In this document: piece by piece, positions 481 to 5,716 of the stretch
How the letters are laid out: every line of letters begins with the position of its first letter
Position numbering within the stretch: the first letter of the stretch is position 1
NCBI RefSeq assembly: GCF_013315695.1
Contig: NZ_CP054357.1
DNA length: 5,716 nt
Source of the DNA: Escherichia coli
GTDB taxonomy: Bacteria > Pseudomonadota > Gammaproteobacteria > Enterobacterales > Enterobacteriaceae
Strand: one strand, 5' to 3'
Made by a program: the position numbers and the translations under genes
The notes under the pieces: generated by a model
Told to the model about the DNA's origin: nothing
The model's database searches: none
Seen by the model: the letters and a program-made list of their open reading frames with translations, nothing else

Positions 481-1197
481 CTATTTCAGTATGGCATATT
501 TTTTATTTGGTGATTGTTCATTAAAATAATATCCGCTTTCGTCATCAACTAACACGCATGCTTTACGATAATCTCCACACTTCGAGAACTCGGCCAATGG
601 AGCTTTTTCTTTCCATTCTTTTAACATGGATTCATGTTTTTTCTGTTCTTCCATTAGCGAACTAATATTCATTTTGAGATATTCAGCATAGAAAACAGGA
701 GCGATCATTAGCAATAAAAATAATACAATCAACACAATTACCTTTTCGACAATCCTTGTTACTGTATACTTCTCCATTGTTTTTCTAATTATACCTGTCG
801 CAACTTCGGCCTCTCTGGTCGTCTGCTTTAATGATTCCTTTATCTCTTTACTTGTTTGCTCCTCGAAATCAACCCACTCTTTCTTTACATCATTGAGAGT
901 GAAAGATAATTTTTCGCGGAGTAATGACGTTAGTGTATCTGAGACTGATTTCTGTAATTTACAAGATGCCTCATCCATTCCTTTATTAATATAAAATTTA
1001 ACATTAGACACACTATCCCTAAAGGAATAAGAAATTCCAGAAACAACTTTACCTTCACGTTCAAGAGTACTTGTAAAGGTATTTAAGTCATTCACTCTTT
1101 CATTAAGCAGAGTAATTAGCCTGTTCATTTCTTTTATTTGTTTATCATTATACGCAACAAGAGCAGCAATTTTTCTTGAATGTTCATCCAATTGCAT
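481..1197 (-). CDS. Hypothetical membrane protein, 238 aa: N-terminal coiled-coil-like region, one TM helix, small Cys-containing C-terminal domain
   Basis: ORF with a GGAGG Shine-Dalgarno 9 nt upstream of the ATG at 1197, only 20 nt after the mobA stop. The N-terminal ~150 aa are rich in K/E/L/I with heptad-like spacing; one strongly hydrophobic segment (VIVLIVLFLLLMIAPVFYAEYL); the C-terminal ~60 aa contain CGDYRKAC. Clearly more AT-rich than adjacent mobA. I recognise no family. Confidence 0.7.
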   Translation of the reverse strand: MQLDEHSRKIAALVAYNDKQIKEMNRLITLLNERVNDLNTFTSTLEREGKVVSGISYSFRDSVSNVKFYINKGMDEASCKLQKSVSDTLTSLLREKLSFTLNDVKKEWVDFEEQTSKEIKESLKQTTREAEVATGIIRKTMEKYTVTRIVEKVIVLIVLFLLLMIAPVFYAEYLKMNISSLMEEQKKHESMLKEWKEKAPLAEFSKCGDYRKACVLVDDESGYYFNEQSPNKKYAILK

Positions 1198-1217: not shown

Positions 1218-2303
1218 TTAACGGCTCATACCATAATCACGTGAACGTGATGGTGCTGGTGAGGAATACGCACGCTGGCGCACTCTTTCTCTTTCCCTCT
1301 CCAGGTCTCTTTGCTTTTCGGCTTCAATTAGTCGTTCCTGTTGCAACTTCCGCTCCTCTTCCACCTGGAATTGCTTCATCATTGAGTCCAGCGCACCGTT
1401 AATCAATGAATTAAGCTGCATTACCTCATTGAGTTCATCAAACGAGCTTTCAACAAACGCCTTCAATTCTGCCCCAAGCTCATCCAGGCTTGGTGGTATG
1501 TTATCCCGTTCAGCTAACGCTTCCTTCAAGGTCGTTTTAAGGTCAATGATGCTGTCCCGTTCCTGCTCTGCTTCTAGCTTCTCCCGTTCCGCGTTTCTCC
1601 GTGCCAGAATTGCACAAACCTGATCAGCATTCATAACAGCAACACGAACGGGACCAAGATGAACTTCCGGTGTGCGCTTGATACCCTGTTCTTTCAGTGA
1701 ACGATGATCAACGCGCGACTGATGGCCGTGCCGCGCAAGGTGTTCATTCTGCACATCAGCCCAGTGAGAACGTAGCGCAACCAAGGCTGATTTTCGCTCT
1801 TGTGGTGTCTCACCAAAGCGTGCCTTTTTTGCACCTCCCCGCTCCGGTGATTTGCTGTTGGCACGTTTAAAAAACTGCTGCGGATCGCGTTCAATACCAT
1901 CATTAATCCGCTCGCAAAACATGATATGTGCGTGTGGTTGTTCCTTTCCGTCGATTGCACCTGGCGGATTGTGGATCGCGTACTGATAGGCATGGCGATC
2001 ACCAAGCTCCTTTTGCACGAAATCTTCAACAAGTTCTATCCGTTGTTCGCGTGTCAGTTCTCGCGGTAATGCGATCTCAATTTCACGGTATGCCGTCCCG
2101 TTTTTTCGTTCAAATTCATCTGCTGCTTTCCATAGCTCTGCGGGATTTTTCTTCGCCCATGATGGCATGTTACCGGATGACGAAAATTCCAGATCCTCCC
2201 GCGATTTGTAGTTCTTATATTCGCCGGATCTAGAAATATAATCAGCATGTTTTAAGGCTACGCCTTTTGCTCCAGTTTTAACTGTACAATGGTAGCTTGC
2301 CAT
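1218..2303 (-). CDS. mobA: MobA relaxase, MOBQ family (RSF1010 MobA-like relaxase domain only, 361 aa)
   Basis: The N-terminus MASYHCTVKTGAKG...HADYISRSGEY parallels RSF1010 MobA (MAIYHLTAKTG...KADYIQREGKY, catalytic Tyr in the ADYI motif). It also carries EIEIALPREL and the histidine motif HAHIMFCERINDGIERDPQQFFKR (RSF1010: HCHLMISERINDGIERPAAQWFKR), then VDHRSLKEQGIKRTPEVHLGP. The C-terminus is ER-rich low complexity. Comparison is from memory of the RSF1010 sequence. Confidence 0.9.
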   Translation of the reverse strand: MASYHCTVKTGAKGVALKHADYISRSGEYKNYKSREDLEFSSSGNMPSWAKKNPAELWKAADEFERKNGTAYREIEIALPRELTREQRIELVEDFVQKELGDRHAYQYAIHNPPGAIDGKEQPHAHIMFCERINDGIERDPQQFFKRANSKSPERGGAKKARFGETPQERKSALVALRSHWADVQNEHLARHGHQSRVDHRSLKEQGIKRTPEVHLGPVRVAVMNADQVCAILARRNAEREKLEAEQERDSIIDLKTTLKEALAERDNIPPSLDELGAELKAFVESSFDELNEVMQLNSLINGALDSMMKQFQVEEERKLQQERLIEAEKQRDLERERERVRQRAYSSPAPSRSRDYGMSR

Positions 2304-2333
2304 CTGCCGTTAAGCCCTCCGCAGGAGCGCACT

Positions 2334-2387
2334 GTTTCTCGACGAAGGAGAGAAACGTCTAAGTGCGCATCCCTGAATTAATCAGGG
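2334..2387 (+). other. oriT: oriT (origin of transfer) with RSF1010-type nic region; predicted nick between 2367 and 2368 on the + strand
   Basis: Inverted repeat GTTTCTC (2334-2340) / GAGAAAC (2350-2356) followed by TAAGTGCGC (2361-2369). RSF1010 oriT, as I recall it, has GTTTCTCGAAGAGAAAC then GGTAAGTGCG^CCCT. A second small palindrome CCCTGA-ATTAA-TCAGGG follows at 2371-2387. It lies between divergent mobA and mobC, as in RSF1010. Confidence 0.7.
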
Positions 2388-2421
2388 ATGATTTTAAGGT
2401 CTCACACGCAGGCAGACAAGG

Positions 2422-2430
2422 TGATATTAT
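2422..2430 (+). promoter_or_regulatory. Putative extended -10 element (TGaTATTAT) for the mobC transcript
   Basis: TG at 2422-2423 followed by TATTAT at 2425-2430, about 45 nt upstream of the mobC start; no good -35 hexamer is seen. Sequence-pattern inference only. Confidence 0.3.
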
Positions 2431-2474: not shown

Positions 2475-2921
2475 ATGACAAATCGTGAAGAGTGGTTAAG
2501 TGCAAAAATTGCCTATATCAACGGACTGAAATCACCGTCAGAGCAGCAAAGATTACTTGTGTTACTGGCAGAGAAAAAAAACCGAACAACGACGGATGAA
2601 AAAACGTTGTCCGCACTGATACGGGCAGAAAAAACCGCAGAGAAAGCAGCCGCAGCAAAAGCCAGGGTAACGGCAATAATAGCGGCAGAACGGAAGGCAG
2701 CCGCAAGGGCGGAACGAAAGGCGCGGGATCATGAACTCTACAAGGCCGCAGGCCTCATGATTGTGGCAGGACTGGTGGACAGCAAAACCGGAAAACCAAA
2801 GTTTAGTGCTGCCGAACTGGTAGGCGCACTCGCAGGAATCGCAGAGCTACCGCGCAACCATCCAAAATGGCAGGAATGGGAAAAACGCGGGAAAGAGCTA
2901 CTCACCAAAGACAGTGCGTAA
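2475..2921 (+). CDS. mobC: MobC / TraD-like relaxosome accessory protein (148 aa from the ATG at 2475)
   Basis: Divergent from mobA across oriT. SD GAGGT sits 4 nt upstream of the ATG at 2475. An Ala/Lys/Arg/Glu-rich helical region (AEKAAAAKARVTAIIAAERKAAARAERKARDHE) is followed by a hydrophobic stretch (LYKAAGLMIVAGLVD), which resembles the RSF1010 MobC pattern (..ERKNETRRKVLVGAMILAKV..) from memory. The upstream in-frame ATG at 2388 lies inside the oriT palindrome and lacks a convincing SD. Confidence 0.7.
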   Translation: MTNREEWLSAKIAYINGLKSPSEQQRLLVLLAEKKNRTTTDEKTLSALIRAEKTAEKAAAAKARVTAIIAAERKAAARAERKARDHELYKAAGLMIVAGLVDSKTGKPKFSAAELVGALAGIAELPRNHPKWQEWEKRGKELLTKDSA

Positions 2922-3097: not shown

Positions 3098-3130
3098 CTG
3101 TTATCTGATAAGGCTTGTTATCTGGTCTCA
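3090..3130 (-). other. ori: ColE2-type replication origin (Rep binding and priming site) immediately 3' of rep
   Basis: The minus strand reads AAAATGAGACCAGATAACAAGCCTTATCAGATAACAGCGCCTGT, with CAGATAACA repeated. This matches my recollection of the ColE2-P9 minimal origin (TGAGACCAGATAAGCCTTATCAGATAACAGCGCC). The rep stop codon TGA (3128-3130) is the first triplet of this element. Confidence 0.7.
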
Positions 3131-4057
3131 TTTTGCGAGATCTGGATCACATTTTAGTTTTCGATAGTATGTGGCACGACTGATCCCTAACGTCACCCAC
3201 GGCTTCAGAGTTCGTGCCGATGTGGCAACGGCTACACGCTTTGATTTCTGACCTTTAATAGCCTGATTTTCTGATGAATTTGCATTACCGCCCTTACGAC
3301 CTCGAGCAGCCTGTACCGCGGAAAAGCCTTCAGGAGAGAATTTGCGGTAGGTGTATTTCGCAATACTCTTGCCAATAGCCCGACATTCAGCCGGAGAAAG
3401 CGGAACGGGAAGCGATGCGTTGTACATTTCGACACGCTGAATCACTGCATCAAGCCACGGTGAGAATGCTGGCCAGCCCTGACGAATCGCCCTGTAAGAC
3501 CATTTACGGCCCTTTTCGAACAGATACCAGTTTCGCCCCATCCCGTAATCTTTATCGACGCGACGGCGCGCTGAGGCGCTCAAATCAAGATAATCCGCCA
3601 GTTCGTCGAGGGTATAGAGTTCCCAACGCCATTCCACCACCTGCCATTCCTGGTGGAACGGATTTTTGCAGATCAGGCCGCTGTAGTTCACATCCGCGCC
3701 CAGTTTTTCACACAGCGCACGCTCAATCACGGCAGCGTATTTGAGCGCCGAAGCCGATGCATCCGGCGCGGTTCTCACCGGAAGAGTGAGCGCGTAGAGC
3801 AGATGCGCGTGCCCGTTACGTGGATTTTTTACGGTGATGTTCGGGGCCGGACAGTTCCGGTCGCTCCAGTCGATCGCTGCCCCCGTCCGGTCAACGTCAA
3901 AGGCCAGCCAGTGCTGCGCATGTGGCTGGTTCTGCTGGATGAAACGGGCAAGGATGGCGATATCTTTCGGTAGAATGCGAACGCCGTACGTGAAATCGTT
4001 CGTACAGTACGGTTTGTGCGGTAATTTTTCCCTGAAGAGTTGAAGTACGGCGCTCAT
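3128..4057 (-). CDS. rep: ColE2/ColE3-family replication initiator Rep (plasmid-specific primase), 309 aa
   Basis: Translation MSAVLQLFREKLPHKPYCTNDFTYGVRILPKDIAILARFIQQNQPHAQHWLAFDVDRTGAAIDWSDRNCPAPNITVKNPRNGHAHLLYAL... is near-identical over long stretches to ColE2-P9 Rep as I remember it. GGAGG sits 12 nt upstream of the ATG, and the cognate ori-like sequence lies directly downstream. Confidence 0.9.
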   Translation of the reverse strand: MSAVLQLFREKLPHKPYCTNDFTYGVRILPKDIAILARFIQQNQPHAQHWLAFDVDRTGAAIDWSDRNCPAPNITVKNPRNGHAHLLYALTLPVRTAPDASASALKYAAVIERALCEKLGADVNYSGLICKNPFHQEWQVVEWRWELYTLDELADYLDLSASARRRVDKDYGMGRNWYLFEKGRKWSYRAIRQGWPAFSPWLDAVIQRVEMYNASLPVPLSPAECRAIGKSIAKYTYRKFSPEGFSAVQAARGRKGGNANSSENQAIKGQKSKRVAVATSARTLKPWVTLGISRATYYRKLKCDPDLAK

Positions 4058-4241: not shown

Positions 4242-4342
4242 CTCTAAAACGCTCTCAATCGCTTTCTGACGCAAAAAACTCAAAAAGACAAGATAAACCT
4301 AGGGAAAACACAAAAAACGCGTCAGAATCGTTTTTAGGGGTC

Positions 4343-4356
4343 TGCATAACTATGCA
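4343..4356. promoter_or_regulatory. Perfect palindrome TGCATA-AC-TATGCA: candidate ARG box (ArgR accessory site) for the cer-like site
   Basis: 14-bp perfect palindrome about 120 bp from the XerCD core on the XerC side. It resembles the ARG-box half-sites (TGAAT....ATTCA) with an A-to-C substitution; cer-type sites require ArgR and PepA binding about 100 bp from the core. Confidence 0.35.
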
Positions 4357-4481
4357 CAAAAGCGATTAATGATCGGTTTCACCCCTTCAGAAGCGCGAAC
4401 TGGTCAAAACAGCAAACTTTCTCATCCAGAAAGCCAGCTGAACTAACCCGCATGAAAACAAATTTCCAAACATATCCAGTC

Positions 4482-4508
4482 TGGACAACGAAATATCGAC
4501 AATATAAA
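4482..4508 (+). promoter_or_regulatory. Putative sigma70 promoter for the cargo operon (-35 TGGACA, 15-nt spacer, -10 TATAAA)
   Basis: TGGACA at 4482-4487 and TATAAA at 4503-4508, about 100 nt upstream of the ATG at 4610. The spacer is short; pattern-based only. Confidence 0.3.
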
Positions 4509-4609
4509 ACATCATAATCGTGTTTATGGCGTGTAAAAAAGCTTACAAGAGAATTAGCATTGAAGAGTCATAACAACAAATTCCAAAAATCAAACCAGAG
4601 GATAGGAAA

Positions 4610-5560
4610 ATGAATAATTTTATAAATGAATGTATTTCCGCTCCGAGAATAAACGGCATGGCAGAATTTTTCTCATCAACTGCATCAGGGGAAAAACACA
4701 AACCTTTTAGACTAGTAGAAATAGATGATCGGCTTTTTCATTCTTATGATTACATTAAGTTTGCCAAACACCTCACAAAAAACAGCGGCCCTTTCGTTAA
4801 TCATTATTTTTGCAGTATACCATACAGCAAGGAAGAAGAGTGCAGATTAGGAACAACAGTAATAAAATACGCAATCACGCTAAACAAAAAATTAAACACA
4901 TGGTGTCTTGGTATGGCTGAGGGCGCAATGGCAAGAACCATTTCAGAATTATCAAAAGGAAACATACAAACATTAACAACCAGTCCAACAAAAGAAAATG
5001 AACATGCATTTTTTAAGTATAGCTCAAGTGAAAACGCTTATTTTATTTGCACTCCATTTTTCCTGTTAGAGGAAAGACTAAAAAATTCAAATCTTAAACA
5101 ATTTAATCAAGGATTCGATATTATAATAGAAGACACCACATTTCAAATGTACTCACCTAACAGATCTGGGCAAATAAACCACGTAAAAAGGCTATTAAAT
5201 AATGATGGTATTTTCATATTTACAGAAAAACATAGTTCAGAACATGATGAATATCAAAAAAGAGAAATCCAAAAAGATTATTCATTCAAACAAAGGTATT
5301 TCTCGAAAGATGAGATTAACACCAAAAAGGAAATCGTACTAAACACAATGAATTTGAATGAAGTTAGTGTTGACGATATGCTTTCCGCAATTAAACAACA
5401 TTTTAAATACGCATCAATATATTGGAATAGCGGAAATTTTTACTCAATCGCCGCCAGCAATTCACTAAAACACATATCAACATTTATAAATTTATTACCG
5501 AAAGCTGCAATTCCTATGGAATATGTATATGAAAAGCTCCCACGAAATATATCATGGTAA
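4610..5560 (+). CDS. Hypothetical protein, 316 aa; possible class I SAM-dependent methyltransferase-like Rossmann core (tentative)
   Basis: SD AGAGGA 7 nt upstream of the ATG; AT-rich. The central region has MTase-like motif spacing: LGMAEGAMARTI (glycine-rich, motif I-like), then about 65 aa later FDIIIEDTTF (motif II-like), then VKRLLNNDGIFIFTE (motif III-like). No canonical GxGxG and no (D/N/S)PP(Y/F) DNA-MTase motif. Stop TAA at 5558-5560. Confidence 0.75.
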   Translation: MNNFINECISAPRINGMAEFFSSTASGEKHKPFRLVEIDDRLFHSYDYIKFAKHLTKNSGPFVNHYFCSIPYSKEEECRLGTTVIKYAITLNKKLNTWCLGMAEGAMARTISELSKGNIQTLTTSPTKENEHAFFKYSSSENAYFICTPFFLLEERLKNSNLKQFNQGFDIIIEDTTFQMYSPNRSGQINHVKRLLNNDGIFIFTEKHSSEHDEYQKREIQKDYSFKQRYFSKDEINTKKEIVLNTMNLNEVSVDDMLSAIKQHFKYASIYWNSGNFYSIAASNSLKHISTFINLLPKAAIPMEYVYEKLPRNISW

Positions 5561-5566
5561 GTAAAC

Positions 5567-5716
5567 ATGGAATATTCAACATTATTATCATTTGCTATCG
5601 TAACCTTATCGCAAACTATATCAATAGGGCCTGGCGTTGCATTGGTTATAAACAATGCCTTTTCACATGGATTAAAGTCATCAATAAAAACAAGTATATA
5701 CATAAGAATTGGCGAG
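5567..5716 (+). CDS. LysE/RhtB-family exporter, N-terminal 50 codons; 3' end runs off the window (continues at 1..423 if circular)
   Basis: ATG at 5567, 6 nt after the stop of the 316-aa gene. MEYSTLLSFAIVTLSQTISIGPGVALVINNAFSHGLKSSIKTSIYIRIGE has the hydrophobic N-terminus and S-x-GPG motif typical of LysE/RhtB translocators (RhtB: ..[20 protein letters not shown]..). There is no stop before the window end, and the window ends exactly on a codon boundary. Confidence 0.75.
   Translation, partial: MEYSTLLSFAIVTLSQTISIGPGVALVINNAFSHGLKSSIKTSIYIRIGE

Follow-up and report, generated by a model that had tools for sequence, protein, structure and literature searches.

Where does the transfer of a small mobilizable plasmid begin, and what do the inverted repeats around that point contribute? 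These questions are raised by a 5,716-nucleotide (nt) stretch of Escherichia coli DNA (assembly GCF_013315695.1, contig NZ_CP054357.1), hereafter called the window, in which the short region between the relaxase gene mobA and a divergent accessory gene carries several inverted repeats (Table 1). Our analysis suggested that positions 2324–2390 are very probably the core of an RSF1010/R1162-type (MOBQ) origin of transfer (oriT), which would be served by the adjacent MobA and by the divergent TraD/MobC-family accessory protein. An initial annotation, made from the sequence of the window, had already identified the oriT as RSF1010-type and was right to do so, and as an oriT it is ordinary in kind. 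The most interesting result comes from comparison, which indicates that in many MOBQ origins the nick is flanked on either side by dyad symmetry that covaries. E. coli, Salmonella, and Shigella very commonly carry small ColE2-type plasmids of the MOBQ type, and an origin and a likely nick fixed to the base help to predict which plasmids can be mobilized.

Table 1. Features of the window, with their positions, strands, and the basis on which each was assigned (aa, amino acids; ORF, open reading frame).
Feature	Position	Strand	Description	Basis
MobX-like ORF	481..1197	-	238 aa, one predicted membrane helix, downstream of mobA	Homology
mobA	1218..2303	-	MobA/MobL (MOBQ) relaxase, 361 aa	Pfam PF03389, E = 9e-38
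Outer left arm	2324..2333	+	(GGA)GCGCACT	7-nt perfect inverted repeat, GCGCACT 2327-2333
Inner inverted repeat, left (distal) arm	2334..2340	+	GTTTCTC	Identical to RSF1010 arm
Loop	2341..2349	+	GACGAAGGA, 9 nt	C-GAA-G inside, GA/GA on its sides
Inner inverted repeat, right (nic-proximal) arm	2350..2356	+	GAGAAAC	Identical to RSF1010 arm
Spacer and nic core	2357..2368	+	GTC, then TAAGTGCGC (2360-2368)	Homology to RSF1010, MOBQ consensus
Second palindrome	2368..2390	.	CATCCCTGA-ATTAA-TCAGGGATG, perfect 9+9 nt arms	Inverted-repeat search
Predicted sigma-70 promoter toward mobA	2391..2419	-	-35 TTGTCT 2419-2414, 17-nt spacer, -10 TAAAAT 2396-2391	Consensus scan
Predicted sigma-70 promoter toward traD/mobC-like gene	2401..2430	+	-35 CTCACA 2401-2406, 18-nt spacer, TG-extended -10 TATTAT 2425-2430	
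TraD/MobC-family relaxase accessory gene	2475..2921	+	148 aa	Pfam PF06412 TraD, E = 1.5e-8
ColE2-type Rep	3128-4057	-	PF03090	Pfam

The oriT core and its predicted nick

The initial annotation had read this region as an inverted repeat and nic site of the RSF1010 kind. The arms, the 9-nt interval, the GTC spacer, and TAAGTGCGC were all found exactly and in place. The composite motif GTTTCTC-N9-GAGAAAC-N3-TAAGTGCGC occurs once in the window and, with 2 mismatches allowed, in none of 200 dinucleotide-preserving shuffles; TAAGTGCGC alone is not significant, a match within 1 mismatch appearing in 139 of the 200. As the annotation had proposed, the region was aligned with characterised MOBQ oriT sequences, and NC_016859.1 served as the RSF1010 reference (one of 121 IncQ1-type plasmids matching the 38-bp R1162/RSF1010 oriT at ≥99%). 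The results showed that the arms, the spacer length, and the nic core are the same as in RSF1010, and that TAAGTGCGC matches the core of the MOBQ oriT consensus NWACCNNTAAGTGCGCCCTYNN (PMC3832669) at 9/9 positions. The distance from arm to nick is also that of RSF1010 (11 nt), GAGAAAC being followed up to the nick by GTCTAAGTGCG in the window and by CGGTAAGTGCG in RSF1010, with C as the next base in both. Inside the loop, C-GAA-G has the closing pair and triloop of the RSF1010 loop, and a C-GAA-G mini-hairpin such as that in 2341–2349 is expected to be stable. The arm GAGAAAC (2350–2356) is expected to be the one bound by the relaxase; in the RSF1010 hairpin, MobA contacts the base only (PMC4814116).

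Because the nic core equals the MOBQ consensus core and cleavage at GpC is documented for the homologous site of pIP501 (PMC4981023), we predict, by homology only, that the + strand is nicked between G2367 and C2368. With a conjugative helper plasmid present in the same donor, MobA would recognise the GAGAAAC arm and the following 11 nt, cut the + strand at G2367/C2368, and remain linked to C2368 via Tyr22. Judged again by homology, the + strand would enter the recipient 5′ to 3′ with the traD/rep side leading, and the repeat and nic, the last to arrive, would refold as a hairpin and direct rejoining.

The RSF1010-like identity is further borne out by the flanking MobA/MobL relaxase, by the divergent TraD/MobC gene, and by the conservation of a 46-nt core in diverged lineages. 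The best solved relative of the window MobA is the R1162 minMobA (PDB 2NS6, E = 3.5e-37), with which Tyr22, Glu74/Glu76, and His111/His124/His126 align at R1162 Tyr25, Glu74/Glu76, and His112/His120/His122; the window MobA is devoid of a primase domain. The accessory protein scores 34.8 bits against PF06412 (cut-off, 22.3) and is alignable with the accessory proteins of ten related modules, RSF1010 MobC included, and a search of NCBIfam returned no match for either the window protein or RSF1010 MobC. Its gene is divergent from mobA with the oriT between the two, a layout that is the same in RSF1010.

The 46-nt core (2327–2372) was matched at 74–93% in seven lineages (six distinct), and in these same lineages the 5′ coding DNA of mobA was matched at 29–43% and the next 100 nt 3′ of the core at 9–31%. 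The core was found in 680 PLSDB plasmids, about 580 of which align over window positions 2310–2372 only, and an oriT is annotated at the core in none of 60 sampled matching records. A recombination breakpoint at nic was considered, as the homology of those ~580 plasmids ends about 4 nt after nic, and it was rejected because the mobA side has diverged too (48–58% protein identity). Judging from these alignments, the core is an island of conservation and no module boundary.

The identity of the core does not simply follow that of the relaxase. It reaches 87–93% in the Col156 5167-bp and the 3.1-kb plasmids, whose relaxase domains are 58–64% identical to that of the window, and it is lower (83%) in Enterobacter kobei, where the relaxase domain is 71% identical. 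Such a mismatch possibly means that origins are cross-recognised or that plasmids sharing a cell have exchanged the core, and cross-talk may be possible between systems whose relaxases are 58% identical and whose cores are 93% identical; in a comparable situation, cross-recognition was shown for MOBQ4 plasmids (PMC6856555). A scan of genome contigs with AGAAAC-N2-4-TAAGTGCG proved too unspecific, since only 2 of 120 loci were true oriTs, one on a Xanthomonas arboricola contig and the other on an RSF1010-like plasmid.

These data also bear on the idea that the oriT has decayed and lost its ability to support transfer. The relaxase is indeed short (361 aa), and its match to NCBIfam MobQ (E = 8e-29) falls under the curated cut-off. 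However, mobA and the accessory gene are both intact, all catalytic residues of MobA are present, the core is far better conserved than its flanks, and plasmids almost identical to this one occur across many countries in E. coli, Salmonella, and Shigella, all of which makes decay extremely unlikely.

Dyad symmetry on both sides of the nick

Upstream of the inner repeat lies an element that the initial annotation did not mention. GCGCACT (2327–2333) is flush with the inner left arm and is the exact complement of AGTGCGC at 2362–2368, so that the pairing spans the nick, and the preceding GGA can pair with TCC (2370–2372) across a 1-nt bulge. Together with the inner arms, this pairing makes an interrupted repeat of 14+14 nt, in which the inner repeat is the core and the nic site is included. 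When folded as single-stranded DNA, positions 2320–2395 form two abutting hairpins (-19.9 kcal/mol, z = -6.3), and 0/200 shuffles folded as well. In this minimum-energy fold, the first hairpin, extended and bulged, includes the outer arm, the second follows directly, and the nick is located at their junction. The minus strand gave -19.1 kcal/mol (z = -6.5) with DNA energy parameters.

In 26 of 50 lineages, a nic complement 6 nt or longer was located no more than 12 nt 5′ of the inner repeat, a count reached by none of 2000 shuffle sets. Its sequence varies with that of the nick (marked here by a slash). The majority of lineages have CG/C at the nick and GCGCAC(T) upstream, opposite GTGCGC; three lineages with GG/C, pJD4 among them, have GCCCAC opposite GTGGGC; one with GC/G has GCGCCAC opposite GTGGCGC; and two with CA/C have TGCAC opposite GTGCA. 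Among the 13 lineages with a non-consensus nic, the upstream element fits the lineage's own nic better than it fits the consensus in six, versus 0/5000 in the null. The outer repeat is possibly a mirrored relaxase-recognition element on the other strand. Kindred ideas are found in published work, as pIP501 is described with a perfect IR1 and an imperfect IR2 (PMC4981023). As the same helix could form in the transferred DNA strand, in a cruciform, and in the mobA mRNA leader, covariation cannot tell which of these is the selected molecule.

If it were the mRNA, a mobA transcript from ~2384 would carry the extended hairpin (complement of 2327–2368) in its 5′ leader, about 10 nt ahead of GGAGGG, where it would make the mRNA more stable or keep relaxase translation low. 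With the predicted 5′ end at ~2384, the whole 2327–2368 helix would be transcribed, the fold of the minus strand is as good, an RNA helix would be expected to show the covariation seen in the outer stem, and the mobA promoters of RSF1010 read through oriT too (PMC6817606). On the other side, the second palindrome would be only half transcribed and hence left unexplained, an Rfam search of the whole window returned no RNA family match, and recognition by the relaxase already accounts for the inner repeat and the nic core. We regard a selected RNA hairpin as improbable.

The second palindrome lies immediately 3′ of the nick. The initial annotation had described it as CCCTGA-ATTAA-TCAGGG, which is present at 2371–2387, but the arms are in fact longer, 9 nt each, namely CATCCCTGA at 2368–2376 and TCAGGGATG at 2382–2390, and start at the first base 3′ of the predicted nick. 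Arms of 9 nt occurred in 0/500 shuffles of the 45 nt after nic, and the hairpin alone has a folding energy of -9.4 kcal/mol (z = -5.3). The implied departure from RSF1010 did not hold, as RSF1010 has CCCTAC-AAA-GTAGGG at the equivalent place.

The palindrome was surveyed in the mobA-upstream regions of twelve further lineages together with the earlier ones (18 oriTs, several of the same lineage), and a metagenome scan enlarged the survey to ~47 lineages; perfect arms of at least 6 nt starting no more than 8 nt from nic were counted. A nic-adjoining palindrome was found in 18 of 47 related lineages versus 8.8% of windows drawn at random from the same contigs (p = 4e-8; about fourfold), and it starts exactly at the first base after nic in 13 of the 18. 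Most of the 18 oriTs have a palindrome of their own at the nick, which is CCCTGATAA-N9-TTATCAGGG in E. kobei, CACTGATAA-N8-TTATCAGTG in Moellerella, CTTTACTCTAATT-N5-AATTAtGAGTAAAG in Klebsiella variicola and Citrobacter freundii, CTTCC-TT-CTAATT-TTACG-AATTAG-CAC-GGAAG in the Col156 5167-bp plasmids, CCTTCCGAAAATC-GAA-GATTTCCGaGAAGG in Klebsiella pneumoniae, CTCATG-TTC-CATGAG with RSF1010-like flanks in an Aeromonas IncQ1-like plasmid, and CATTACGTTA-TTT-TAACGTAATG in pJD4. It is absent in MOBQ4, in the Xanthomonas oriT, and in one Acinetobacter lineage, and weak in a second Acinetobacter lineage (L138).

Across lineages the loop measures 3, 4, 5, 8, 9, 10, or 11 nt. Compensatory arm substitutions distinguish CCCTGATAA/TTATCAGGG of E. 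kobei from CACTGATAA/TTATCAGTG of Moellerella, and CCCTAC/GTAGGG of RSF1010 from CTCATG/CATGAG of the Aeromonas plasmid, where the flanks are conserved. The accessory proteins of E. kobei and Moellerella are nearly identical over the first 66 residues (86% overall), and their palindromes differ by one compensatory pair and one loop nucleotide. Those of the Col156 5167-bp plasmids and K. variicola are 73% identical, and their palindromes share the inner CTAATT/AATTAG, with the outer arms swapped for different complementary sequences. Selection for intrastrand pairing would account for such variation no less well than a site for a dimeric protein. Taken together, the comparisons indicate a nick-side palindrome that is recurrent, lineage-specific, and precisely positioned, and dispensable in many lineages.

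The nic complement at 2327–2333 would extend the hairpin across the nick, while the 9+9 palindrome would begin at the first transferred base, and the nick is framed by more dyad symmetry than studies of RSF1010 emphasise. The palindrome and the outer nic complement might accordingly act as DNA secondary structure, with no protein operator involved. In the donor, the repeats would extrude or breathe as cruciforms in supercoiled DNA, with the short nic segment between them easy to melt, and in the transferred strand the abutting hairpins would hold the 3′-OH of G2367 and the 5′ end of C2368 together as an intramolecular splint. In line with this, the minimum-energy fold leaves no unpaired base between the hairpins, 13 of the 18 lineage-specific palindromes begin at the first base after nic, the loop is free to vary in length even between lineages with nearly identical accessory proteins, changes in the arms are compensatory, and the upstream element covaries with nic variants. 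Yet HUH relaxases are described as holding nic single-stranded and the accepted model of conjugation does without a cruciform for nicking (PMC4814116), and the enzyme would have to compete with any pairing of the nic sequence. Moreover, the feature is missing in roughly half of the lineages, in RSF1010 the complement lies 25 nt further upstream, changes in the symmetric half-sites of a dimeric protein would look compensatory as well, and the same helices lie in the mobA mRNA leader, so that covariation does not identify the selected molecule. A purely structural role is a contender that we hold to be somewhat on the unlikely side.

A more general proposal is that many RSF1010-type origins place the nick where two helices meet, the stacked hairpins serving as a splint for recircularisation and a double cruciform exposing the nick; we put this forward tentatively and consider it rather doubtful. 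If true, MOBQ systems would present nic in a way nearer to that of rolling-circle Rep origins than the current model has it. No description of the two-helix arrangement was found in the literature searched, older R1162/RSF1010 papers being outside its reach. In any case, covarying repeats at the nick offer a hypothesis on how MOBQ relaxases find and reseal their site.

Several additional repeats and motifs were observed around the core. A small palindrome, CTCC-GCA-GGAG (2317–2327), overlaps the complement of the likely mobA ribosome-binding sequence (GGAGGG, 11–12 nt before ATG). A 16-nt inverted repeat (2202–2217/2470–2485, 14/16 complementary) joins mobA codons to the region of the traD start codon; its chance probability is ~0.01 by hand estimate, and it is also present in the 94% identical lineage and absent from five other lineages. 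In many metagenome lineages, the right arm of the nick-side palindrome is followed by ATA, as in GAAGGATAC and GGAAGGATAG, so that the mobA-sense strand has TATCCT or TATCTT there, a hexamer that resembles a -10 box and overlaps the arm. In one variant of RSF1010, the palindrome has 11-nt arms from the first base after nic, CCCTCCCCTAC-AAA-GTAGGGGAGGG.

Divergent promoters and the operator question

The initial annotation had also suggested that the second palindrome is a binding site for MobC or a repressor and overlaps divergent promoters. The predicted mobA and traD promoters do overlap back to back. The -10 of the predicted mobA promoter lies directly against the palindrome, and the predicted start (~2384) falls inside the right arm, which agrees with the suggestion, but the palindrome overlaps neither hexamer of the predicted traD-directed promoter. 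Promoter conservation was checked in the E. kobei lineage only (71% identity), where the mobA-side -10, TACAAT, abuts the palindrome of that lineage and TTGACC-18-CATAAT is found in the same place on the traD side. An operator at the predicted mobA promoter is thus plausible.

As regards the protein that might bind there, the position of the palindrome is compatible with MobC or a repressor, but the structural prediction for the accessory protein gives no support to this part of the suggestion. Its AlphaFold model is almost all helical, with five helices of which the longest spans residues 39–97 (59 residues), a pLDDT (predicted local distance difference test) of 83, and a pTM (predicted template modelling score) of 0.47. 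The model is without the N-terminal beta-strand of the ribbon-helix-helix fold, which is weak evidence given the shallow alignment (10 sequences). A Foldseek search of the model against the PDB gave no match with E < 3.8 and no ribbon-helix-helix or helix-turn-helix relative.

Because the palindrome sits on the predicted mobA start, directly below the -10, any occupant of the site, be it the relaxosome or the accessory protein, or its extrusion as a cruciform, would be placed to throttle mobA transcription and might help to open the nick region. By analogy, such a role would parallel the relaxosome autoregulation of RSF1010 and the Ti plasmid. In RSF1010, p1/p3 (mobA) and p2 (mobC) are located at oriT and MobC co-represses (PMC6817606, PMC4176158), and in the Ti plasmid the relaxosome of TraA, TraC, and TraD at oriT represses both divergent operons (PMC3907764). 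A role of the palindrome as operator or relaxosome site and a role as hairpin or cruciform are not mutually exclusive, and both are live.

Besides the Foldseek result, several observations weigh against our reading of the locus. The position of the nick comes from homology alone; the bases 3′ of it, CATCCCT, differ from the CCCTY of the consensus, the match being only approximate there; and the literature searched yielded neither nicking or mobilization data for this plasmid or its close relatives nor a paper printing its oriT. The predicted promoters are consensus matches only, at 9/12 positions, and a scan of the Col156 5167-bp lineage found no promoter at threshold. A perfect palindrome is lacking in ~60% of the related lineages. 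An uncompensated single mismatch is carried in the right arm (TCATGGATG) by Shigella sonnei p75-02_5 (L128) and in the left arm (CATCCTTGA) by one metagenome variant of the window lineage; because natural variants carry such mismatches, perfect symmetry is not strictly required. The 38-bp minimal oriT of R1162 would exclude the RSF1010 palindrome, and if so, basal transfer has no need of it.

The last three of these points would also suit a palindrome that arose by chance or is neutral, the repeat and nic alone being what matters. Nevertheless, 9-nt arms were never obtained by shuffling, the enrichment among lineages is about fourfold with a strong preference for the first base after nic, and the arms are kept while loop and flanks diverge completely. 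We consider a chance or neutral palindrome very unlikely.

The plasmid and its place among known mobilization systems

The window is a complete circular ColE2-type plasmid of 5716 bp. Plasmids of Salmonella London and E. coli match it at 100% identity, and in PLSDB there are 27 records that span 80% or more of its length. PLSDB/MOB-suite typing describes the plasmid as mobilizable, with relaxase type MOBQ and replicon rep_cluster_2141. Downstream of mobA, the 238-aa ORF is 30% identical (E = 2e-12) to a gene annotated as 'mobilization protein MobX' that follows mobA in the E. kobei plasmid; searches of Pfam and NCBIfam gave no match for this ORF, and a literature search on 'MobX' found no paper. 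The ORF belongs to a low-GC cargo segment (4250–5716 plus 1–1200, 29–34% GC versus ~50% in the mob/rep backbone), which also contains a 316-aa ORF, whose methyltransferase or CmoA-like matches are weak, and a LysE-family translocator gene spanning the window ends (~5568–5716 plus 1–423).

In its relaxase domain, the window is 94% identical to S. sonnei and E. coli Col156 plasmids, 71% to E. kobei, 69% to Moellerella, 64% to the Salmonella 3.1-kb plasmids, 58% to the Col156 5167-bp plasmids, 57% to K. variicola and C. freundii, 55% to K. pneumoniae, 52% to Burkholderia multivorans, 45.5% to RSF1010 (over 218 aa), and 41% to Neisseria gonorrhoeae pJD4. The plasmid is a member of a broad set of short-relaxase MOBQ modules.

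The system with which the oriT invites comparison first is RSF1010/R1162 (IncQ1), the MOBQ1 prototype. Identical in both are the GTTTCTC/GAGAAAC arms, the length of the 3-nt spacer, and TAAGTGCGC. The relaxase gene flanks the repeat and reads away from it, and the accessory gene does the same next to nic; a palindrome stands 3′ of nic, promoters lie in the oriT region (predicted ones in the window), and the loop tip is C-GAA-G. The catalytic residues of the two relaxase domains are common. The loop, however, has 3 nt in RSF1010 and 9 nt in the window, and the arms extend there to 10 bp (CCAG/CCGG), whereas the extension in the window is GCGCACT across a 5-nt bulge. The nic complement GGAGAGCGCAC of RSF1010 (10/11 match to GTGCG/CCCTCC) lies 25 nt further upstream, and its palindrome has 6-nt arms from the sixth base after nic instead of 9-nt arms from the first. 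The window accessory protein (148 aa) is ~12–23% identical to MobC. Membership in IncQ1 was rejected, as the 361-aa MobA of the window is not fused to a primase, mobB is lacking, and the replicon is ColE2-type in place of RepA/RepB/RepC.

MOBQ4 (pIGWZ12, ColE9-J, pO26-S4) was considered because of the ColE2-type replicon, which is found in its Q42 subgroup, and the shared TAAGTGCGC core; the hosts are enterobacterial as well. Its oriT has been located experimentally in the mobA-mobC intergenic region (Garcillan-Barcia et al. 2019, PMC6856555), and within the family the N-terminal 300 aa of the relaxase are ~84% identical (PMC6856555). Membership was rejected on relaxase identity, relaxase length, and the different inverted repeat: MOBQ4 relaxases reach ~739 aa and end in a primase-like C-terminus, that of pO26-S4 is 32% identical to the window MobA over its N-terminal ~309 aa, and the repeat is CAATC...GATTG, with no palindrome abutting the nick.

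The Ti plasmid (MOBQ2) resembles the window in having an accessory protein of Pfam TraD and an oriT between divergent operons, both of whose promoters are repressed by the relaxosome (PMC3907764). It differs in being a large conjugative plasmid under quorum-sensing control with a relaxase-helicase of ~1100 aa. pIP501 (MOBQ3) shares an RSF1010-type nic, GpC cleavage, and a perfect repeat IR1 along with an imperfect IR2 (PMC4981023). Its promoter overlaps the repeats and is repressed by the relaxase (PMC4981023), but it lies over the left halves of the repeats, 5′ of nic. In RA3, the accessory MobC binds a palindrome at its own promoter beside oriT and autoregulates (PMC4175270); that MobC is a ribbon-helix-helix protein working with a MOBP relaxase, a fold that the model of the window protein does not have.

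The small Col156 MOBQ plasmids of E. coli, Shigella, and Salmonella (for example, the 5167-bp pMB9698_4 and the 3.1-kb Salmonella plasmids) differ from the window in a relaxase that is 58% identical in the catalytic domain and 48% overall, in the sequence of the palindrome, and in all DNA more than 4 nt 3′ of nic, which is unrelated. They nevertheless share with it the gene layout, the accessory family (32% identity), a palindrome that begins at the nick, and a core that is 93% identical over 2327–2372, the loop and the outer arm included.

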